The notes under the pieces: model-generated
Seen by the model: the letters and a program-made list of their open reading frames with translations, nothing else
Database searches by the model: none
Told to the model about the DNA's origin: nothing
In this document: positions 27,271-47,482 of the stretch, piece by piece
Numbering within the stretch: the first letter of the stretch is position 1
Layout of the letters: each line of letters begins with the position of its first letter
Made by a program: the position numbers and the translations under genes
DNA from: a virus
Taxonomy: Duplodnaviria > Caudoviricetes
Length of the DNA: 64,000 bases
Reading direction: 5' to 3' (one strand)
IMG/VR virus record: IMGVR_UViG_3300025416_000002
Coordinates: 16,552-80,551 of that record

Positions 27271-27312
27271 ACGAAAGGATTTAAAAAGGGTTAGAACTTG
27301 GTCCTAGGTATT

Positions 27313-27407
27313 GAAGAGATTCATTCTCAGAATCCTTCCCGTAGGGCCTGGTCTTCCTCGGGGGTTGCAGTCGACGTTCTGTTACGACTCCCCCCGAGGC
27401 CCTTCGG
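27313..27407 (+). other. Structured intergenic/leader element (two hairpins) upstream of whiB
   Basis: GAAG-A-GATTC/GAATC-CTTC hairpin 27313-27338; long hairpin 27339-27407 (AGGGCCT/AGGCCCT, CGGGGG/CCCCCG, AGTCG/CGACT). Confidence 0.5.
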
Positions 27408-27415
27408 TAAATATT

Positions 27416-27814
27416 ATGGAAAAAACAACCATTGACTATACGTGGCAAAGGCATTCACTCTGTGCCACAATGGATTTAAAGCTCTTCTACCCTCCACAAG
27501 GTAAAAGATATTCCACGGAAGCAGCAGCAGCCTGCGCATCGTGCCCAGTCAAGCAAGAGTGCATTGATCATGCGCTGAAGTATGAAGAGTATGGCTACTG
27601 GTCTGGCACCACACCCAAAGAACGGGAAGCAATGCGCAAGGAGCTGGGTGTTGAACTGGTCGATATCTCCTACGAGTCTAGCTTAGTTCTTGCAGAAGAG
27701 GTCCGCAAGCACGAAGAATTTACCAACAGCCTAAAAATTAAAGGCCGTGGAAGAAAGCCAAAAAGCTTGCTTTTGCAAGACACCAATGATACGATCATCT
27801 CGGAGAACGAATAA
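27416..27814 (+). CDS. whiB: WhiB-family Fe-S transcription factor
   Basis: Four Cys in WhiB spacing (LCATMD..LFYP..AAACASCPVKQECIDHAL) and G-x-W-x-G-T-T-x-x-ER turn; ATG 27416 preferred to TTG 27311. Confidence 0.85.
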   Translation: MEKTTIDYTWQRHSLCATMDLKLFYPPQGKRYSTEAAAACASCPVKQECIDHALKYEEYGYWSGTTPKEREAMRKELGVELVDISYESSLVLAEEVRKHEEFTNSLKIKGRGRKPKSLLLQDTNDTIISENE

Positions 27815-32888: not shown

Positions 32889-32920
32889 TCCGAACGAAGC
32901 AAATACCGTAGATGCAGCAA

Positions 32921-32952
32921 GGGGCCTGGGTATGCCCCCTAACAACTACCCA
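32921..32952 (+). ncRNA. H-type pseudoknot motif, copy 1
   Basis: S1 GGGGC/GCCCC, L1 C, S2 TGGGTA/TACCCA, L3 CTAACAAC; second copy at 44154-44180. Confidence 0.6.
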
Positions 32953-32955
32953 CAA

Positions 32956-33029
32956 CTGGTAGTGGCTCAACTTGGTAGAGCGGTTGGTTTGGGTCCAACA
33001 GGTTGGGGGTTCAAATCCCTCCTACCAGA
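32956..33029 (+). tRNA. tRNA-Pro(UGG)
   Basis: Acceptor CTGGTAG/CTACCAG, anticodon arm GTTGG-TT TGG GT-CCAAC, TTCAAAT T-loop. Confidence 0.92.
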
Positions 33030-33036
33030 CGCATTA

Positions 33037-33108
33037 GCCCTTGTAGCTCAGAGGAAGAGCATCTGTTTTGTAATCAGAGGGTCGGGGGTTCAAATCCCTC
33101 CGGGGGCA
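33037..33108 (+). tRNA. tRNA-Thr(UGU)
   Basis: Acceptor GCCCTTG/CGGGGGC, TAGCTCAG D-arm, loop TT TGT AA, TTCAAAT T-loop. Confidence 0.88.
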
Positions 33109-33110
33109 CT

Positions 33111-33338
33111 ATGACATTAAATCAAGCAGCGAAGATTATGCTGGAGTTGTGCAACATCCCAGCTACACCAAAGTTGATTGCAGCGTTTAGCAATTACTCG
33201 TCTAACAGTATGTACATCAAAGGCGTATTGAAGCAGGCAGCGCCACAGGCGAGCAGTATGAGTAACCCTGCGTATCAGCAGGCGATGGAAGTTTTGCGTT
33301 CCAACGGAATTGATGTTAATATCTTTGATACCAACTAA
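33111..33338 (+). CDS. Hypothetical protein
   Basis: ATG immediately after tRNA-Thr; 75 aa (the track ORF start at 33003 overlaps tRNAs). Confidence 0.5.
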   Translation: MTLNQAAKIMLELCNIPATPKLIAAFSNYSSNSMYIKGVLKQAAPQASSMSNPAYQQAMEVLRSNGIDVNIFDTN

Positions 33339-33350
33339 GTAGGAGTAAGT

Positions 33351-33527
33351 ATGCATCACGAAACCTGGTGGAGTATCCTCACCGATCCCAACCACCTCAT
33401 TGCTGAAAGCATTGTGGGGTTAGTAGAAGAGCTCATCGTCTTTGGACTGGGTTATTACTTCGGTCGCAACAAGATCTGGAAGAAGATCCACAAGCAGTTC
33501 GATGAGGAACACAACATCGAGCACTAA
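33351..33527 (+). CDS. Small membrane protein (58 aa)
   Basis: AGGAG RBS; MHHETWWSILTDPNHLIAESIVGLVEELIVFGLGYYFGR...; not in the supplied track. Confidence 0.6.
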   Translation: MHHETWWSILTDPNHLIAESIVGLVEELIVFGLGYYFGRNKIWKKIHKQFDEEHNIEH

Positions 33528-33532
33528 GATTG

Positions 33533-33608
33533 GCCCCAGTAGCTCAGTGGACAGAGCTGAACGTTTCTACCGTTTAGGCCGGGGGTTCGAATCCCTCCTG
33601 GGGTACCA
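33533..33608 (+). tRNA. tRNA-Arg(UCU)
   Basis: Acceptor GCCCCAG/CTGGGGT, anticodon arm GAACG-TT TCT AC-CGTTT, TTCGAAT T-loop, encoded CCA. Confidence 0.9.
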
Positions 33609-33609
33609 A

Positions 33610-33682
33610 GGATGATTAGCTCAATTGGCAGAGCAGGACCTTTACACGGTCAAGGTTGGGGGTTCGAGTCCATCATCATCCA
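33610..33682 (+). tRNA. tRNA-Val(UAC)
   Basis: Acceptor GGATGAT/ATCATCC, loop TT TAC AC, TTCGAGT T-loop; one mismatch in each of the anticodon and T stems. Confidence 0.85.
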
Positions 33683-33708
33683 CTGCAGTACACTAGTAAG
33701 GAGAAACC

Positions 33709-38377: not shown

Positions 38378-38685
38378 TGTCATCTCTTGATTTCTCATCT
38401 AAGATCGAAAGACGTAAGAAGATCGAAGATCGTATGAATAGCCTATCTGAGTCGAGACTCATGGCAGTGTCACTGTTCATCGTCCTCGTGCTGGCATTCG
38501 TCGTGATCGTTCCGGTATCAATCGTGGCTTTGCCATTCATGCTTGCATGGGATACCACAAAGGCTCTGTTGGAAGTGCTCAAGAAGAAGAAGGCAAAAGA
38601 GGAGAACCCTTTCCTCGTTGACTTCAACAGTCTTGACAACGTAACAATGGATTTAAAAAACTGGTTTAACATAGGGAATGATTAA
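38377..38685 (+). CDS. Putative single-pass membrane protein
   Basis: Hydrophobic stretch LMAVSLFIVLVLAFVVIVPVSIVALPFMLAW. Confidence 0.6.
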   Translation: MSSLDFSSKIERRKKIEDRMNSLSESRLMAVSLFIVLVLAFVVIVPVSIVALPFMLAWDTTKALLEVLKKKKAKEENPFLVDFNSLDNVTMDLKNWFNIGND

Positions 38686-39062
38686 TGGAAAAGAAGTTGG
38701 CACAATCAGGTGATATGGTCTTCGAAAGAAACCTTGCTATCATCGCAGGCAGACGCCAGGAAGTACAGATCTTCAGTGATGGATTCGTTTACAAGGGCTA
38801 CATGTGTGGCCTGGACGAACAGTGGATCCAGCTGTACGGTCACGAAGAGAACGATCAGAATGACTACGATGCTCAATGGAGATTCCTGTTGATTAACAGG
38901 ATCAACATCTCGGCTATTGGTCCTAACGGTAAGAACCTGACCGACCTTGACGACGAGACTCGTGAGTGGGTGAGCAAGAAGATTCAGATCTTCTCAGATG
39001 TTTGTGATAAGTTTGGTTCAGTAAGAGGAGTAAAGAACCATGACGGAAAAGAAAAGTTTTGA
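38685..39062 (+). CDS. Sm/LSm/Hfq-like fold protein (putative)
   Basis: Sm1-like EVQIFSDGFVYKGYMCGLDEQWIQL and Sm2-like LLINRINISAIG. Confidence 0.5.
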   Translation: MEKKLAQSGDMVFERNLAIIAGRRQEVQIFSDGFVYKGYMCGLDEQWIQLYGHEENDQNDYDAQWRFLLINRINISAIGPNGKNLTDLDDETREWVSKKIQIFSDVCDKFGSVRGVKNHDGKEKF

Positions 39063-39504: not shown

Positions 39505-40276
39505 TTGGGAGAAGGATTACGTAAACCTCAAGTACGAGTTCCTTGAAGACGAGGAGGTTGACTACCTTGAGCAGAAGTATCCCCAGTTCGAGAAGTTCGC
39601 TAAGCAAGGTTGCCCTACGTGTCTCGACAACACGTGCGGTGACTGCAAGTATCAGCTTCAGTTGTACAAGCACTACTCACGTGCAGGCATTGGCCTGAAC
39701 TACCAGCGTCTCAGCTGGGAAGATTTCCAGGGTGACGAGAAGGCTTTGGCGTTGGCTAGGATCTACCTTGGCCAGCACAAGGAGTTCGTCAAGGGTGGTA
39801 TGGGTATCCTCTACCATGGCACCTGGGGTACTGGTAAGACACTGCTCACTAGCCTTATCGCTAAGGAGCTTGTCAAGCTGGGCTACAGTGTCTACTTTGC
39901 TACGTTCACCCAGATGGTTGACGAGTTCACCCGTGGTTGGGGTAGCAACGATGACAAGGCACGCTTCGAGAGCAAGGTCGTTAAGAGCGACGTGTTCTTC
40001 CTGGACGACATTGGTAAGGAGTTCCGCACCAAGAACAACCTGAGTGAAGCAACGTTTGACCACGTCATGCGTCAGCGTGCACTGGACAACCGTCCAACGT
40101 TCATCACTACCAACATGGGCATTGATGAGTTGATGGAAGGCTACGGTGGTGCTATATTCTCTCTCCTGAAGGAGCGGGTGATCGAGCACAACATGACTGG
40201 CATCGACTATCGTGAGTACGCACGCAACCGTACGCTTGACGAAATTAAGTATGGAACAGTAAGGAAGATCCTGTAA
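39476..40276 (+). CDS. DnaC/IstB-like AAA+ helicase loader
   Basis: Walker A GTWGTGKT, Walker B FFLDDIGKE, FITTN; N-terminal CxxC..CxxC. Confidence 0.88.
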   Translation: MTSLNDSLFDWEKDYVNLKYEFLEDEEVDYLEQKYPQFEKFAKQGCPTCLDNTCGDCKYQLQLYKHYSRAGIGLNYQRLSWEDFQGDEKALALARIYLGQHKEFVKGGMGILYHGTWGTGKTLLTSLIAKELVKLGYSVYFATFTQMVDEFTRGWGSNDDKARFESKVVKSDVFFLDDIGKEFRTKNNLSEATFDHVMRQRALDNRPTFITTNMGIDELMEGYGGAIFSLLKERVIEHNMTGIDYREYARNRTLDEIKYGTVRKIL

Positions 40277-41556
40277 TGGACATTGAAAAGAGTTTGGTTC
40301 GGCACTTTGCCAACCTCGATAGCTTTAACGAAATTTGGAACAAGGGGATCCGCAGCGAGCACTTCTTCGATGATGGTGTGCGTGAGCTGTTTGACTACAG
40401 CCTTGACTACTACATCCGTAGCGAGTTCAAGAGCACGGTAGACCAAGACTTCCTGGAGACCAAGTTCGCTGACTACTTCGTACGTAACGAGTGGCCAGAG
40501 GAAGAGTACCTGGTAGGCGTTCTCATTGAAGAAATGATGACTAAGTACCGCAAGGCTACAACTCAAAGCGTCCTATTGAAGGCAGCAACAGCGTTGGAGT
40601 CAGACCCTGAGTCTGGCATTGCACTGGCATTGAATAGCTTGTCCAAGATCCAAAACGACACTAGTACTCGTGAGCGTCTTGAGGTCTACGGTGAGGGCTA
40701 TGACCGCCGTGTCAACAACTACCTTGAGGAAGTCGCCAACCCTACCCGTGACAAGAAGGGTATCTACCTGGGCTGGGATGAACTGAACGATCACATGTAC
40801 GGGATCCAGAAGGGTGAGCTTGCGGTTGTCGTGGGTATCCCAAACGTAGGTAAGTCGTGGGTGGGCTCAGTCATCGCTCTTGAGGCAGCACGTCGCAAGA
40901 ACAAGGTCTACTTTGCATCGCTGGAGCTCCGTAAGGAACTGACACTGATGCGTCTGGACTGCTTGGCTAGTGGTGTACCCTACAGCCGTTACGAGCGTGG
41001 GCAGCTTACTCCCAATGAGCTTCGTCGTCTCAAGGAAGCACGTGAAGAGATCATGGAGTTTGGTGAGTACCTGATGATCGACTCGCCAGCACGTAAGAAC
41101 GAGCGTAGCGTCTTGGAGCTGTACTCCAAGGCTAAGCACTGGGGTGCTGACATGGTCGTGGGTGACCAGTTGTCATGGGTTACCACCGAGAAGTCGTACG
41201 GTAGCTCGAGCAACGTGCAGTCCCTGCAGATGGCAGAAGTCATCACCGACATTGCCAGTACCAACCGTGAGATGGGTATGGCATCCGTGTGGCTCGCACA
41301 GTTTAACCGTGAAGCTATGAAGAACAAGAAGGGTCGAGGTGGCCTAGGCAACATTGGTCTCTCCTCACAGATCGAACAGATCGTGGACATGGCCATTGGT
41401 ATCGGTGCTACCCGAGAGATGAAGCAGCAGGAAGCTCTCGTCATGGACATCATGAAGTCTCGTCGTAGTGACCTTAAGTCCTGGATGATGGGCTTCGAGC
41501 TCAAGGACCGCACTAGCTTAAAGGTTGTCCGTGAGTACGAGGATGCTACAGAGTGA
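40276..41556 (+). CDS. dnaB: DnaB-like replicative helicase
   Basis: GELAVVVGIPNVGKS, SLEL, VVGDQLS, LAQFNRE, SSQIEQIVD. Confidence 0.9.
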   Translation: MDIEKSLVRHFANLDSFNEIWNKGIRSEHFFDDGVRELFDYSLDYYIRSEFKSTVDQDFLETKFADYFVRNEWPEEEYLVGVLIEEMMTKYRKATTQSVLLKAATALESDPESGIALALNSLSKIQNDTSTRERLEVYGEGYDRRVNNYLEEVANPTRDKKGIYLGWDELNDHMYGIQKGELAVVVGIPNVGKSWVGSVIALEAARRKNKVYFASLELRKELTLMRLDCLASGVPYSRYERGQLTPNELRRLKEAREEIMEFGEYLMIDSPARKNERSVLELYSKAKHWGADMVVGDQLSWVTTEKSYGSSSNVQSLQMAEVITDIASTNREMGMASVWLAQFNREAMKNKKGRGGLGNIGLSSQIEQIVDMAIGIGATREMKQQEALVMDIMKSRRSDLKSWMMGFELKDRTSLKVVREYEDATE

Positions 41557-41705: not shown

Positions 41706-41859
41706 GAATGAAAGAGGTTTCTGGGAGTGCAGACTACCCATCAACCCAATGAAACACCCAAGTAAGCTACATGAACAGGCATTAAACGACCTCAGCCCAA
41801 GGGATCGTGAGCTCATAGAGAACATTAAGGACGATTTGAAATGGCTAAAGGACAACTAA
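41698..41859 (+). CDS. Small hypothetical protein (53 aa)
   Basis: Fills the gap before primase; MRKNERGFWEC... Confidence 0.4.
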   Translation: MRKNERGFWECRLPINPMKHPSKLHEQALNDLSPRDRELIENIKDDLKWLKDN

Positions 41860-42860
41860 AAGAGATCTTCGCAGGTCTCGATGCCAGAGTGGTTCTACAG
41901 GACATCCTGGGTGTAGGCGAGATCATGGAGAATGGCGACGAGTACATTCACTCATGCCCACTACCGTTTGGTGTTCACCGCAATGGTGACCGTAACCCCA
42001 GCGCAAGCTTGAACAAAGAAACCCTTCTGTTCAACTGCTTCGGTTGCGGGGGTGGCAGTGTTATCTGGCTGGTGCAGAACGTACTCAACGTCGATCGTGA
42101 CGAGGCCATAGCCATCCTGAAGAATGAGGTGGTGGAGCTCAAGGTCGTAGCGATCGAGGACTTCATCAAGCGTCTGGAGGGTGTCTTCGCTGCCAACCCT
42201 TGCGACCGTAATGAGATCCCCCACTACAGTGACAACATCATCAAGCGTTGGGAAGGTCCTTGCGACTATTTAACTACCAGAGGCGTCTCAGTTGACGTAC
42301 AACGGGAGATGCGCACGGGGATAGAGATGGGTAGGCTAGAGATGGCTAAGACCCTCACAGGCGAACGTAGCGTCGCTGTTGACCGTGTAGTTATACCCCA
42401 CTTCATGAACGGTAGGCTAGTTGGATGGGTAGCTCGCAAGGTCGAGGATGTCCAGGGAGTACCCAAGTACCGCAACTCTAAGGGATTCCCACGGGGAGCC
42501 TGGTTATTTAACCTAGATAACGCCCGTCAATACGATGAGGTCTACGTAGTCGAGAGCCCCATGAGCGTCCTGGTCATGAAGTCCAGGGGCATCAAGAACG
42601 TGGTGGCTACCTTCGGTGCTAAGGTCGATAAGCAGCAGCTCAACCTTCTGCGTAGGTTCAACAAGGTCAACGTGTTCATGGACGGGGATGCCCCTGGTCG
42701 TATGGCCACAGACCACATCCTTGAGGAGTTACAAAACTATACCAAAATTGGTATAATTTTGACACCTGACGATGAAGATCCTGCTACTATGGAGATCATC
42801 CCCACACCAACAAGTTCGTTTGAGTACCAGTTAAAACACCGTTTGACTTGTGTTAGTTAA
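41841..42860 (+). CDS. dnaG: DNA primase (CHC2 zinc finger + TOPRIM)
   Basis: HSCPLPFGVH..NPS..FNCFGC; VVES; FMDGDAPG; EDPA. Confidence 0.9.
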   Translation: MAKGQLKEIFAGLDARVVLQDILGVGEIMENGDEYIHSCPLPFGVHRNGDRNPSASLNKETLLFNCFGCGGGSVIWLVQNVLNVDRDEAIAILKNEVVELKVVAIEDFIKRLEGVFAANPCDRNEIPHYSDNIIKRWEGPCDYLTTRGVSVDVQREMRTGIEMGRLEMAKTLTGERSVAVDRVVIPHFMNGRLVGWVARKVEDVQGVPKYRNSKGFPRGAWLFNLDNARQYDEVYVVESPMSVLVMKSRGIKNVVATFGAKVDKQQLNLLRRFNKVNVFMDGDAPGRMATDHILEELQNYTKIGIILTPDDEDPATMEIIPTPTSSFEYQLKHRLTCVS

Positions 42861-42871
42861 GCTGGTACTCT
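42843..42871 (+). promoter_or_regulatory. SigA-type promoter for the ssb-groES-dnaE region
   Basis: TTGACT-17 nt-TACTCT with TGn extension. Confidence 0.65.
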
Positions 42872-42929
42872 TATGAGTGCAGTAAACAAAAACCAACAGC
42901 CCTAGGGCTTCTAAAAGAAAGATACCAAA

Positions 42930-43748
42930 ATGGCATTGCAAAAAGGCATGGCTGCCGTAAAGGCCAGCATTGAACGGTCACAGAAGGGCTCAGGCCCCAA
43001 GACCTACACCGAAACCAACTGGTTCTATTGGACCGCAGGAGAGACGAAGGCTCTACGCTTCCTCACGGACAGCAACGACATCTTCGTAGTTCCAGTCCAC
43101 GAGAACGTACCCACCCACGATGGCAAGAAGAAGACCTTCGTCTGCCGCAGTGTGTTCGACGCCTCATGCGAGCTGTGCGCTCGTGCCAAGGGCGAGCCAG
43201 GTGCGTACCGTCGTGACGTTGGTTACGGTGTCGCCGTACTTCGTGAAGAAGTGCGTGAAGACGGTAAGCTCACCGGCTACCGCGACGTTACTACCACGTA
43301 CGAAGACACTGTCGACGGCAAGGTAGTTACCAAGAAGAAGCCATACGTGGGCATTGTCTCGCAGGGTATGCGCAACTTCTGGAACCAGATCGCTGTCATC
43401 AGCGAGAAGTACGGTAGCCTCCGTGATCGAGAGATCGAAATCCTGCGCAACGGTCAGGGAACTGACACCACGTACATGGCATTTCCTCTCGACAAGAAGG
43501 AGATCGAGAACATCGACACCCGCTACGCAAAGTTCCTTCCAGATATCGAGGCTTTCCTCAACCGTATCGGCAGCCAGGAGTACTACGATGCTCAGCTGCA
43601 CGGAATCGTCAAGGAGAAGGAAGTGAAGTCACCCTCCTCCTCTGCTTCCTTCGCTGAAGACGATGACGAGTACGGCGAGGAAGAGTTCGTCGGTATCTCG
43701 GAAGAGACTACTGCTGACCGTCTACGCCGGAAGATGGCTGGGCAGTAG
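42930..43748 (+). CDS. Single-stranded DNA-binding protein (T4 gp32-like)
   Basis: LRFL, VHE, FVC..SCELC, EILRNGQGTDTTY; acidic C-terminal tail. Confidence 0.75.
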   Translation: MALQKGMAAVKASIERSQKGSGPKTYTETNWFYWTAGETKALRFLTDSNDIFVVPVHENVPTHDGKKKTFVCRSVFDASCELCARAKGEPGAYRRDVGYGVAVLREEVREDGKLTGYRDVTTTYEDTVDGKVVTKKKPYVGIVSQGMRNFWNQIAVISEKYGSLRDREIEILRNGQGTDTTYMAFPLDKKEIENIDTRYAKFLPDIEAFLNRIGSQEYYDAQLHGIVKEKEVKSPSSSASFAEDDDEYGEEEFVGISEETTADRLRRKMAGQ

Positions 43749-43754
43749 TCCCCT

Positions 43755-43832
43755 GTAGAGTGAGCCAGTGGAGTTGGTTGGTAATGTTTCCCTTCCTTTC
43801 TGTTACCGAATCAGCTCCACTGGTCACTCTAC
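43755..43832 (+). ncRNA. Long RNA hairpin with a CU-rich anti-SD-like loop
   Basis: 29 bp with two 1-nt bulges and G.U pairs valid only on the + strand; loop TTTCCCTTCCTTTC. Confidence 0.65.
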
Positions 43833-43854
43833 CTAACCAACAAGAAAGAACACA

Positions 43855-44145
43855 ATGACATTGAATGCACTAGAAGACAAGGTAATCATTAAGGTTGCCA
43901 AGGTCGAGGAGACCACCGAGAGTGGTTTCTATCTTCCAGAAACTGCAACAGCTATGCCAGACCAAGGCACTGTTGTAGCAGTGGGACCAGGCTGGACTGC
44001 TAGCAATGGAACCGTAATCCCAACTGGAATTAGTGTTGGCGATGTGGTATTGTTCAACCGCAGGGCTGCTCAGAAGATCACGGTAGACGACGAAGAGTAT
44101 CTCGTCTTCCTGTCTGAACACATCCTCGGCATCTTTACCGAGTAG
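43855..44145 (+). CDS. groES: GroES/Cpn10 co-chaperonin
   Basis: LEDKVII, TESGFYLP, GTVVAVGPG, VGDVVLF, EEYLV...ILGI. Confidence 0.92.
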   Translation: MTLNALEDKVIIKVAKVEETTESGFYLPETATAMPDQGTVVAVGPGWTASNGTVIPTGISVGDVVLFNRRAAQKITVDDEEYLVFLSEHILGIFTE

Positions 44146-44153
44146 CGTTGCAA

Positions 44154-44180
44154 GACCTGGGTACGTCATTAAACTACCCA
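44154..44180 (+). ncRNA. H-type pseudoknot motif, copy 2
   Basis: S1 GAC/GTC, L1 C, S2 TGGGTA/TACCCA, L3 ATTAAAC; same core as 32921-32952. Confidence 0.6.
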
Positions 44181-44200
44181 ACTAACAAGTAAGGATTACC

Positions 44201-47200
44201 ATGACAGATAAACTTGTCCACCTCCACGTTCACACCGAACACTCATTCCTGGATGGACTTCAGACAGTAGACCAGCTCGTAGATCGAGTGGTATCTCTCG
44301 ACCAAGAAGCTGTAGCTATCACTGACCACGGTGAGTGCAGCGGTCACCTTCGCCTTCAGCATGCAGCTGACAAGGCTGGCATCAAGCCTATCTTCGGTAT
44401 GGAAGGATACTTCACCGACAACCGGTTCGATAAGACTGGTAAGAAGGGTGAGAACTACGACCACATGACCATCGTGGCTATGAATGCCAAAGGTCTGGAG
44501 AACCTGTGGTCTCTGTCGAGTCTAGCTTATATCGAGGGTAGCTACTACGGCAACCCACGCTTTGACTGGGAACTCCTGGAGCGTTACAACGAGGGCCTGA
44601 TCGTTACTGGTGGCTGCATGGGTGGCTGCATTGGTAAGCACCTCAAGGATGATGGTATCTACCAGCGTGCTGTAGAACGTATCAGCCGTTACCAAGCCAT
44701 CTTCGGTGATCGTTTCCACCTTGAGCTGCACACTTACCTTGACCCTGAGAGCAACGAGTGGAACATGCGAGTGGCCGAAGCAGCCATTGACTACAGCGTT
44801 CCTCTGCTTGCTGTCAGCGACGCACACTACGCTGAGCCTGACCACTGGTTTGCTCACGAGCTCATGACTGCTGTGCAGATGGGCAAGACTGTTGACGACC
44901 CCACACGATTCAGCTACGGTCCTAACCAGCTGTGCATCTTCTCAGAGGAGGAGACACGTAGTCGTCTAAGTTATTTGCCTGAGTCACTCGTTGACCAGGC
45001 GATCAATCGCACCAACGAGATTGCACAGATGTGTGATGCCCGTGTACCTGGTGCACGCAAGATGCCTGTGTTCTACAACACTGCAGCGATGGACGAGCGC
45101 AAGCTCCGTGAAACTGTAGAAGAAGGCTTCAAGCGAAAGATCGAAGGCCACGTAACTGAAGAGATGCTCCCTGTCTACCGTGAGCGTATCGAATATGAAA
45201 TGGATGTCATTGTAACCCGTGGGTTCCCGGGGTACTTTCTAACCGTACAAGACATTATTAACTGGAGTAAAAATGAAAACTTTTTGGTTGGTCCTAGCCG
45301 TGGTTCAGTCGGCGGAAGCCTTCTTGCTTATGTTATGGACATCACGGAAGTCGATCCGATCCCTTCTGGCCTTATCTTTGAGCGCTTTCTTAACCCTGAG
45401 CGCGTCTCTATGCCTGATATTGACATTGACATGCCAAAACTTGAGCGTGGAATGGTGCGCGACTATCTGGAGCGTAAGTATGGCCGCAACAATATTGCTT
45501 CTATCGGCACTCTCAACACGTTAGGCGCACGCCAGGCTATCCGAGACCTATGTCGTGGCATGGGCATCAGCAAAGACGATGCAGCAACCATGTCTGACAT
45601 CATCGATGACGACTGGAACATCAAGAACCGTGGTGCAGACTGGGCTACCGTCTACAAGCAGTACCGTTCTGAGTACGCTCCATGGGTTACCAAGTACCCA
45701 CAGCTCTTCGAGACACTGCCTGAGGTAGTCAACCACATCCGCCACGCCAGTGCACACGCTGCAGGCATTGTGATCAGCAAGGAACCACTCGTTGGTGCTA
45801 TGCCATTGCGCTACAGCCAGGTGAACGATGATATCCGTACGCAGTTTGACATGGGCGACATCGATGAGCTGGGCTTTGTCAAGATCGACTTGCTCGGTCT
45901 ACGTACGTTGAGTACACTCATGGCTGCATTGGATCTAATCAAGGAGAACAACGGTGGCACCCTACCTTTTGACCATTTCTATGAATGGAACAACAACTGG
46001 TCAAAGTATTACGACGACGCTGGTGTCTGGGACTCAATTGGCACCGGTCACAATATTGGATGCTTCCAGATCGAGACAGGTTCCCTTAGAAGTTTGGTTA
46101 AGCGATTCCTCCCTCGTAACATCGAAGACCTCTGCACAATGATCGCTATCTATCGTCCGGGTATTACCCGAGCGGTGGATGCAGAAACTGGCTTGAACCT
46201 CCTCGAGATGTACATGCAGAAGCGAGAAGGCAAGCGCAGGGTAACCTACAAGCACCCTAAGCTAGAAAAGATGCTGGGTGTCTCGTACGGTAGTTTCGTG
46301 TACCAGGAGCAGATCATGGAGACCTGCGTCGAGCTCGCTGGGTATACCATCGTAGAGACTGACCGTGTGCGTAAGGCAGTGGCCAAGTCTAACTACGAAG
46401 ACATGGTGGAAGAAGCTGAGATCTTCGTGCGCAAGTGCGTGGAGAACGGCGTAGACAAGGAAGTCGCCAAGTCGATCTTCGATGACATGCGTGCCTTTGG
46501 TATGTATGGATTCAACAAGTCTCACGGTTATGGCTACTCCATGCTGACCTACTGGACTGCCTGGACCAAGCACCACTACCCGCGTGAGTACATGACTGCG
46601 CTGTTCCGTACCAACCCCAAGGACAATGTGGTCTACACCCGTGAGGCTCGTCGCATGGGCATCGAGGTGCTGGGACCTGACATCAACGAGAGCGGTGGCA
46701 ACTTCACCCTTACCAAGTCAGGCAGCATCCGCTATGGCTTGAATAGTGTCAAGTACATCTCTGGCTCTGCCCAGGAGCTACAGAAGCTGGGTCCATTCTC
46801 AAGCATGGAAGACTTCGCAACGCGTGTCCCATCGAAGAAGGTGAACAAGCGTGCTGTCATTGCCATGATCAAGTGCGGTGTGTTCGACAGCATCTGTGGA
46901 GACGCTCGGACAGCTCTGCGCCAGTACCTCGAATACCGTAAGGAGAAGAACCTTGATAATCCTTGTAGCCCTGATTGCCCTCATTGCATTGGACATCTCA
47001 CTACATTTGATTGCTACGCAGATCTGCAAGAGAATGTCATGGCTCGCGGACAAAACGAGCATGAGCTACTGGGGACTATGGTTAGTGTCGATCCTCTTGC
47101 TGATTATCTGGGCATCATAGAAGAAGAGCACAATTTCCCTGGAGAGAAGAAGATGTTCCAGGGAGAGAAGGCTATGATCGGTGGGATGATCTCCCAAGTC

Positions 47201-47482
47201 AAGGAGCTGGTCACCAAGAAGGGCAAGAACCCTGGGGCGGAGATGTGCCAGGTGTGGATCGAGCTGCCCATTGACAACCTTGACGATGAGCTCATGCTTG
47301 ACGAAGATGTAGAATCAACCAAGGATGACAACGTCCAGGTGGTAGCATTCCCTGATACGTATAAGCGTATCAAGGAAGATATCCAGGTGGGTACCCCCGT
47401 CCTGGTAGAGGTGCAGAAGCTCCGTGATGGATTAAGTCTTCGCAGCATCTTCCGTCTTGACAAAATCAAAGAAGCCTGCTAG
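44201..47482 (+). CDS. dnaE: DNA polymerase III alpha subunit (family C)
   Basis: PHP HLHVH..SFLDG, RGSVGGSL, PDIDID, HAAGIV, KIDLLGL, GFNKSH, PDINES. Confidence 0.96.
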   Translation: MTDKLVHLHVHTEHSFLDGLQTVDQLVDRVVSLDQEAVAITDHGECSGHLRLQHAADKAGIKPIFGMEGYFTDNRFDKTGKKGENYDHMTIVAMNAKGLENLWSLSSLAYIEGSYYGNPRFDWELLERYNEGLIVTGGCMGGCIGKHLKDDGIYQRAVERISRYQAIFGDRFHLELHTYLDPESNEWNMRVAEAAIDYSVPLLAVSDAHYAEPDHWFAHELMTAVQMGKTVDDPTRFSYGPNQLCIFSEEETRSRLSYLPESLVDQAINRTNEIAQMCDARVPGARKMPVFYNTAAMDERKLRETVEEGFKRKIEGHVTEEMLPVYRERIEYEMDVIVTRGFPGYFLTVQDIINWSKNENFLVGPSRGSVGGSLLAYVMDITEVDPIPSGLIFERFLNPERVSMPDIDIDMPKLERGMVRDYLERKYGRNNIASIGTLNTLGARQAIRDLCRGMGISKDDAATMSDIIDDDWNIKNRGADWATVYKQYRSEYAPWVTKYPQLFETLPEVVNHIRHASAHAAGIVISKEPLVGAMPLRYSQVNDDIRTQFDMGDIDELGFVKIDLLGLRTLSTLMAALDLIKENNGGTLPFDHFYEWNNNWSKYYDDAGVWDSIGTGHNIGCFQIETGSLRSLVKRFLPRNIEDLCTMIAIYRPGITRAVDAETGLNLLEMYMQKREGKRRVTYKHPKLEKMLGVSYGSFVYQEQIMETCVELAGYTIVETDRVRKAVAKSNYEDMVEEAEIFVRKCVENGVDKEVAKSIFDDMRAFGMYGFNKSHGYGYSMLTYWTAWTKHHYPREYMTALFRTNPKDNVVYTREARRMGIEVLGPDINESGGNFTLTKSGSIRYGLNSVKYISGSAQELQKLGPFSSMEDFATRVPSKKVNKRAVIAMIKCGVFDSICGDARTALRQYLEYRKEKNLDNPCSPDCPHCIGHLTTFDCYADLQENVMARGQNEHELLGTMVSVDPLADYLGIIEEEHNFPGEKKMFQGEKAMIGGMISQVKELVTKKGKNPGAEMCQVWIELPIDNLDDELMLDEDVESTKDDNVQVVAFPDTYKRIKEDIQVGTPVLVEVQKLRDGLSLRSIFRLDKIKEAC

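Follow-up and report, generated by a model that had tools for sequence, protein, structure and literature searches.

A conserved hairpin downstream of the ssb gene in a family of uncultured freshwater actinophages carries a loop that resembles the 3' end of 16S rRNA

Directly after the single-strand DNA-binding protein (SSB) gene of an uncultured phage lies a long inverted repeat whose loop resembles the 3' end of 16S rRNA, and the gene that follows it encodes the co-chaperonin GroES. The question raised by this locus is what such a structure might do there: whether it controls groES, whether it serves the ssb message whose end it may form, and whether its loop, an apparent copy of the anti-Shine-Dalgarno (anti-SD) sequence, has a role of its own. 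The window, meaning the whole stretch of 64,000 nt that was analyzed, comes from an IMG/VR virus record of 80.5 kb with an estimated completeness of ~54%.

The hairpin and its genomic setting

All genes of the 80.5-kb record are on the plus strand, and the order around the hairpin is DnaB-like helicase, primase, SSB, hairpin, GroES, and DnaE (Table 1). The SSB gene shows ~30% identity to annotated SSB genes in Gordonia, Mycobacterium, and Rhodococcus phages. Because the record carries a WhiB-domain gene and because the closest homologues of both its SSB and its DnaE are found in phages of these same three genera, the host is almost certainly a freshwater-lake actinobacterium. The gene for an Hfq-like protein that lies ~5 kb upstream of the hairpin is present in five of five related records, and its product is a possible RNA-chaperone partner of the hairpin. 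The window also contains a cluster of four tRNA genes (Pro-TGG, Thr-TGT, Arg-TCT, and Val-TAC; 32956-33683). The leader of the SSB gene (42861-42929) is conserved in relatives and consists of a CA-rich unstructured run, the dyad AGCCCTAGGGCT, and then an AGAAAG or AAAGGA Shine-Dalgarno (SD) sequence, a layout reminiscent of autoregulated phage SSB leaders. In the cultured relatives Stormageddon, Skog, Pupper, Myrna, and E3 (L238, L241, L242, L243, and L244) the order is DnaJ-like chaperone, SSB, DnaE, so that having a chaperone gene beside ssb is a trait of the family; the adjoining chaperone differs in kind and position, with GroES placed after ssb in the window.

Table 1. Positions of the hairpin, its loop and the genes discussed, numbered from the first nucleotide of the window
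Feature	Position	Strand	Remarks
WhiB-domain gene	27443-27634 (ORF 27311-27814)		PF02467, E 2e-19; marker of actinobacterial phages
Hfq-like protein gene	38685-39062	+	Pfam PF23874, E 2e-8
DnaB-like helicase	40276-41556	+	
Primase	41841-42860	+	
SSB gene	42930-43748	+	PHROG SSB families, E 2e-12
Long RNA hairpin	43755-43832	+	Starts 7 nt past the SSB stop codon; 3' UTR of the SSB gene
Open 16-nt loop	43786-43801	+	Reads GUUUCCCUUCCUUUCU; all pyrimidine after the first G
AGAAAG, SD of groES	43843-43848	+	10 nt past the stem; unpaired in the predicted fold
groES (Cpn10)	43855-44145	+	Pfam PF00166, E 1e-25; PHROG co-chaperonin GroES
DnaE	44201-47482	+	

The stem is formed by pairing of 43755-43785 with 43802-43832. 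The earlier note on this DNA had described a long hairpin of 29 bp with two single bulges and without a U-tract; that outline stands, and only the length needs adjusting, as folding gives 30 bp (~49% G+C) with 1-nt bulges at G43764 and G43808 and three G.U pairs (43785.43802, 43777.43811, and 43774.43814). The minimum free energy of the plus strand is -45.3 kcal/mol (z -5.08), a stability equaled by none of 200 shuffled sequences, and the hairpin is the most stable per nucleotide among the 27 intergenic gaps of the 80.5-kb record. The minus strand folds with -39.7 (z -2.2), but this asymmetry is non-specific, since coding controls are equally biased (52 of 52), and it was dropped as evidence for an RNA because it reflects base composition. 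From 10 to 45 °C the stem is predicted to be at least 99% paired and the loop at least 96% unpaired at most positions. No U-tract follows the stem, the tail being CCUAACCAAC, and the AGAAAG of groES sits 6 nt before the ATG. The same AGAAAG(A) ribosome-binding site (RBS) is found on SSB and on several other phage genes, and it is present on groES in all relatives, whatever the type of loop.

Two small open reading frames at the hairpin were considered and rejected. The one on the plus strand (43784-43858, 24 codons from ATG to TGA) spans the loop and the 3' arm, overlaps the groES start in an ATGA, and is not conserved: it stops after 11 codons in L162 and has no ATG in L002. The other, on the minus strand, would use the loop complement AGAAAGGAAGGG as its SD; it has no conserved start codon and lies opposite to all of the genes. 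A second local hairpin (43613-43655, plus strand), in which GGAGAAGGAAGTGAAG pairs with CTCTGCTTCCTTCGCT around the anti-SD-like loop TCACCCTCCTC, falls within the SSB coding region and is probably a by-product of KEKEVK and Ser-rich codons.

Conservation of the stem and the loop

The 10 nt CTTCCTTTCT (43792-43801) in the loop had been reported as identical at nine positions to the 3' end of actinobacterial 16S rRNA, CCTCCTTTCT, and this was borne out when the end was checked in actinobacterial 16S genes: three actinobacteria were found to have the 16-mer GGATCACCTCCTTTCT at the 3' end of their 16S genes, and it is not restricted to this phylum. The phage's own RBSs (AAGGAG, AGAAAGG) fit the verified 16S tail. 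Within the 80.5-kb record CTTCCTTTCT is the sole match to CCTCCTTTCT with at most one mismatch on both strands, where ~1.4 per strand would be expected by chance. The match is therefore not significant within this one genome, and it is the position in a loop and the conservation in relatives that make it so.

Using the SSB protein as the query, we recovered 30 loci from viral and 77 from metagenomic sequences (103 related loci), with 52 distinct spacers downstream of SSB. In every related lineage the SSB stop codon is directly followed by at least one long hairpin, irrespective of the identity of the next gene (groES, dnaE, or another). Hairpins homologous to that of the window (WIN) were found in 12 lineages: WIN, L158, L162, L002, L003/4/6, L160, L168/189, L167, L183, L211, L202, and L210. 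In their alignment (13 sequences), 18 of the 24 outer-stem pairs have changed on both sides, so that the comparison of relatives proposed earlier as a check finds a stem kept by compensatory changes. Moreover, 87% of the alignment cells are paired, compared with 28-45% when the partner column is slid, and the observed covariation score was reached by none of 500 shuffles. Folding of the plus-strand RNA is favored because G.U cells outnumber A.C cells by 33 to 11. Even in the near-identical strain L158 the hairpin has four base differences, two of which turn G.U pairs into G-C and U-A. These comparisons support the view that the hairpin is a real, selected structure of the plus-strand RNA.

With respect to the loop, the earlier note had named an unconserved sequence as the outcome that would speak against a function. 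Instead, the core CCTTTC is invariant over the 12 lineages, even though their stems have been rewritten and the 5' part of the loop shows free variation. The consensus of the 12 loops is CCTCCTTTCT, the exact 16S terminus, which is present without mismatch in L167, L202, and L210; the family consensus can be given as CCUCCUUUCU, where the loop of the window has CUUCCUUUCU. WIN and L162 share CTTCCTTTCT at all 10 positions on upper stems that differ completely. With up to one mismatch allowed, the spacer after SSB has 0.96 matches per kb, a ~70-fold enrichment over the 0.014 per kb of the other 217 kb of these loci. A looser anti-SD motif falls within the loop of a predicted hairpin in 18 of the 51 spacers, compared with two of 204 control windows. 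Ten further spacers have a small hairpin with the loop ACCCTCCTCAGG. According to a covariance model each genome has a single copy, always after SSB, and there is no second copy in the window or in the records of five relatives. As judged from these alignments, the idea that the loop is a conserved anti-SD mimic is supported.

About half of the related lineages have other types of loop, CTTGATGACAC or AACCCGACAC, at the same position, and the anti-SD loop is therefore not indispensable. Specifically, CTTGATGACAC is found in L007, L011, L012, L022, and L026 and AACCCGACAC in L008, L013, and L022, in each case just after the SSB stop and on unrelated stems, and the two look like alternative conserved loop modules; the UGAUGA in these other loop types resembles a C-box or half of a kink-turn. 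The motif GGGGCCTGGGTA(T/C)GCCCCCTAACAACT(A/G)CCCAC, which occurs in the window at ~32917-32952 and at 44150-44200, lies just after a small hairpin downstream of SSB in L181, L190, and L200. In some relatives this motif stands in for the long hairpin at the SSB junction, a swap that fits an RNA-decay boundary at this place. A megablast search of the hairpin region against 50,697 phage records gave no match, and Rfam searches with the window and seven relatives gave only noise at permissive thresholds (E up to 10). A scan of viral contigs with a stem-motif pattern was too unspecific to be used, as among ~120 matches the only relevant ones were two already-known contigs.

Candidate roles of the stem and the loop

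The position of the hairpin ahead of groES in the window had led to the suggestion that it gates the co-chaperonin gene in cis, as a pseudoknot or a thermosensor. The complementarity on which this was based is present, with the 6 nt CTTTCT (43796-43801) matching the AGAAAG of groES, and since groES of the window lineage has no promoter of its own, the hairpin does lie in its leader. Nevertheless, a groES-specific switch in which the loop CUUUCU pairs with this AGAAAG is scarcely credible in light of the relatives, where groES is the next gene after the hairpin in some lineages only. The same hairpin and loop are found without groES, with dnaE directly next, in L002, L003-6, L160, L167, L168, L183, L202, L210, and L211, and a groES match is absent in the parts covered by records G001 and G006, both of which bear the hairpin. 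The converse also holds, in that groES of L012, L013, and L022 retains the AGAAAGA RBS although the loops are of quite another kind, and strict anti-SD loops occur in four of 17 spacers before groES compared with 14 of 31 before dnaE. The 6-bp duplex between loop and SD is predicted to contribute -5.7 kcal/mol, which is weaker than the mean of -6.3 for 97 phage start regions, and an H-type pseudoknot would require the 10-nt linker 43833-43842 to span a 30-bp helix, a distance of ~84 Å against a reach of at most ~65 Å as judged from A-form geometry. A thermosensor, including an RNA thermometer of the ROSE or fourU type, is at odds with an SD that lies outside of the stem and with a stem that is predicted to stay closed over the entire range from 10 to 45 °C. 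Based on the independence of the loop from groES, the weak duplex, the steric strain, and the stability of the stem, we therefore reject the gating of groES, which we regard as largely refuted.

We now put forward a mechanism, with a probability of about 0.5, in which the hairpin belongs to the gene that it follows: it would make up the 3' UTR of the phage's ssb message, acting as a transcript end or decay barrier that carries an anti-SD seed in its loop. The stem would mark or protect the 3' end of an abundant ssb transcript. It might terminate transcription in spite of the missing U-tract, but it is more likely to block 3' exonucleases, and it may also be a site for RNase III; in this way the levels of ssb RNA could be set apart from those of the downstream groES and dnaE. 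The 16-nt loop would be a second, separately selected module that presents, in copied form, the ten terminal nucleotides of the 16S rRNA of the host and would most likely serve as an anti-SD seed for pairing with purine-rich RBSs, on the same RNA or on other RNAs, thereby lowering translation or triggering decay. RNase III may also release a small RNA that masks RBSs of host mRNAs, as the earlier note had suggested.

For the stem, the relatives that have no groES are informative. In eight of eight such type-1 lineages (L002, L003, L160, L167, L168, L183, L202, and L211) the 3' arm and tail of the hairpin contain TTGAC(T)-N17-TATAGT or TATAAT. This sigma-70-type promoter (TTGACT-N17-TATAGT or TATAAT; 3897-3925 in L002) ends 8-9 nt before the dnaE ATG in seven of them, which would therefore produce a near-leaderless dnaE mRNA, and ~30 nt before it in L202. 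Given the location of the promoter in the 3' arm and tail, the dnaE transcripts of these relatives would start downstream, and the hairpin would be on the ssb message only. The promoter is absent in WIN, L158, and L162, where groES is inserted, and groES of the window lineage appears to depend on read-through. RNA contigs from four lake metatranscriptomes cover 43546-43832 (and also 43326-43476 in one run). One L158-type contig ends exactly at the last base of the stem, 43832, which is a weak hint of an RNA end, given that assembled contigs cannot prove the 3' end of an RNA; none of the four metatranscriptomes has contig cover beyond this base, and absent cover is not evidence of termination. 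A canonical intrinsic (Rho-independent) terminator was rejected, since a consensus scan finds none at the hairpin, no U-tract follows the stem, the loop has 16 nt rather than a short 3-8 nt, and the 30-bp stem has ~49% G+C rather than being G+C-rich. With 30 bp interrupted by two 1-nt bulges, the stem exceeds the near-continuous dsRNA of at least about 20 bp associated with RNase III. As read from the sequences and contigs, the most likely role of the stem is to set or shield the end of the ssb RNA on its 3' side.

The role of the loop is where the alternatives have to be weighed. The predicted pairing of the loop with the nearest RBSs is weak (-5.6 kcal/mol for SSB and -5.7 kcal/mol for groES), both genes fall in the weaker half when the loop is ranked against 97 start regions of the phage, and shuffled CU loops pair equally well with these regions. 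The loop variants among relatives (ending in CTTTCT, CTTTCG, CTTTCC, or CTTTCA) show no covariation with the SSB SD; complementarity of 5-6 bp between loop and SSB SD is always present, as it is for any SD, and we saw no sign of compensatory change. Within the SSB coding region (near +680), seven lineages share a recurrent partner, AAGGAGAAGG; it was rejected, as conserved VKEK codons explain it. The equally good pairing of shuffled loops agrees with a rather unlikely alternative, in which the hairpin is a plain terminator or mRNA-stabilizing structure and the pyrimidine loop has no pairing role, being kept only because it can neither fold on itself nor attract ribosomes. The occurrence of SSB followed by a hairpin in every relative whatever the loop, including the cultured actinophages, also agrees with it, as does a 10-mer match at chance level within one genome. 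However, a plain hairpin does not account for the order-specific core CCUCCUUUC, which is kept despite free variation in the stems and in the 5' half of the loop, nor for the perfect 10-mer in three lineages; loops of 13-17 nt are energetically costly and atypical for terminators, and the U-tract is missing. Furthermore, anti-SD-like sequences are normally selected against in mRNAs: even hundreds of nucleotides downstream they pair with the RBS and destabilize the mRNA, and they are depleted from genes (PMC12697547). That an exposed anti-SD copy is conserved despite this depletion argues for a function, and we consider that the hairpin may be a variant of the anti-SD-loop regulatory RNAs, located in a phage 3' UTR.

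A conserved loop need not pair with RNA, since it could mimic the 16S tail as a decoy for a protein that recognizes this tail. Candidates are the KH domain of Era, bS21 or S1, a maturation RNase, and an anti-SD-cleaving toxin such as MazF-mt3. The family consensus is the exact 16S terminus, and not merely the complement of the phage's own SDs, and the loop contains UCCUU, both of which are as this reading would have it; we nonetheless consider it very unlikely, because the upstream GAUCA context that Era needs is absent in the window hairpin and L158, L003, and L160 have no UCCUU. Quite unlikely is another kind of decoy, in which a stable hairpin made with the most abundant early message would act as a copy of the 16S tail that sequesters strong RBSs of the GGAGG type or a tail-recognizing host factor or toxin, while the phage's own replication genes would escape by means of the weak terminal-tail SD AGAAAG (loop pairing of about -5.6 kcal/mol) or, for dnaE of the relatives, by near-leaderless starts. 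Such a decoy would be a translation-reprogramming device, possibly aided by the phage Hfq-like protein. Finally, the location between ssb and dnaE, together with the promoter-like sequence in the 3' arm and tail of all eight type-1 lineages without groES, could point to a DNA element of the replication module, such as a cruciform, an upstream element of a promoter, or an origin-associated site. This is highly improbable: the excess of G.U over A.C favors one folded strand, RNA libraries include the region, the promoterless WIN, L158, and L162 retain the loop motif, and more than 100 nt separate the anti-SD hairpin from the promoter in L202 and L210. The last two points also led us to reject a role of the loop in the dnaE promoter, whether as an UP element or as an activator site.

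Relation to known hairpins and 3'-UTR regulators

Intercistronic hairpins that serve as RNase III sites or stabilizers are known from phage operons such as T7. The ssb hairpin resembles them in having a long, near-perfect stem between cistrons, in the absence of a U-tract, and in its location at the end of a highly expressed gene. To our knowledge, no conserved loop sequence is known for hairpins of the T7 type.

For the loop, the nearest counterparts are the CcsR or cuckoo RNAs (alpha-r14) of the Alphaproteobacteria, hairpins with CCUCCUCCC loops that are cut from a 3' UTR (PMC8034643, PMC4615179). They share with the phage hairpin an anti-SD sequence in the loops and a pattern in which the loop is conserved while the stems vary (PMC8034643, PMC4615179), and the location of the phage hairpin directly after the ssb stop fits an origin from a UTR as in these RNAs. 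They differ in the loop, which is CCUCCUCCC there and of the CCUCCUUUCU type in the phage hairpin (CUUCCUUUCU in the window), and in architecture, in that CcsR and cuckoo form arrays of short two-hairpin units whereas the phage element is a single, very long hairpin of 30 bp per genome. Unlike CcsR and cuckoo, the phage hairpin has no DUF1127 neighbor and no Rfam match, and its carrier is an actinobacterial phage. The 6C sRNA is closer with regard to the host, coming from the same phylum, and the two are alike in that pyrimidine- or C-rich hairpin loops would be seeds for purine-rich RBSs; actinobacterial 6C uses its C-rich loops to bind G-rich RBSs and needs no chaperone to do so (PMC6486639). 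However, 6C is encoded by a gene of its own and has two C-rich loops, whereas the phage element has one CU-rich loop that copies the 16S tail, and the phage hairpin has no match to the 6C covariance model of Rfam.

Pairing within the same message has precedents as well. The anti-SD in the 3' UTR of icaR of S. aureus pairs with the SD of its own mRNA (PMC3868564), and together with the long-range folding of anti-SD and RBS in B. subtilis (PMC12697547) it offers the likeness of a downstream anti-SD-like tract that is able to pair with the SD of the same mRNA and to promote its decay. The phage loop differs from these cases, since its predicted pairing with the SSB SD amounts to 5-6 bp and -5.6 kcal/mol and no covariation with the SD was found.

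Regulatory RNAs with anti-SD loops are already known in bacteria (cuckoo/CcsR, 6C, and RsaE), and in the literature searched we found no description of such RNAs in phages. What the comparison of relatives adds is a family of uncultured freshwater actinophages that keeps an exposed copy of the 16S tail at what would be the end of the ssb message, contrary to the usual purging of such sequences (PMC12697547). If the loop does pair with RBSs, it would be a simple and portable means by which a phage could tune or hijack translation, and it would add a riboregulator derived from a 3' UTR in the Actinobacteria, where few are known. C-rich loops also lie directly after ssb in distant cultured relatives, the Gordonia phages Stormageddon (CACUCCCCCCAG), Pupper (ACCCUUCCCAC), and Skog (UCACCCCUCCCCAC). 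The genomes of these phages are high in GC and we treat their loops as a lead; as they occupy the same spot as the hairpin of the window, the idea is directly testable in culture.
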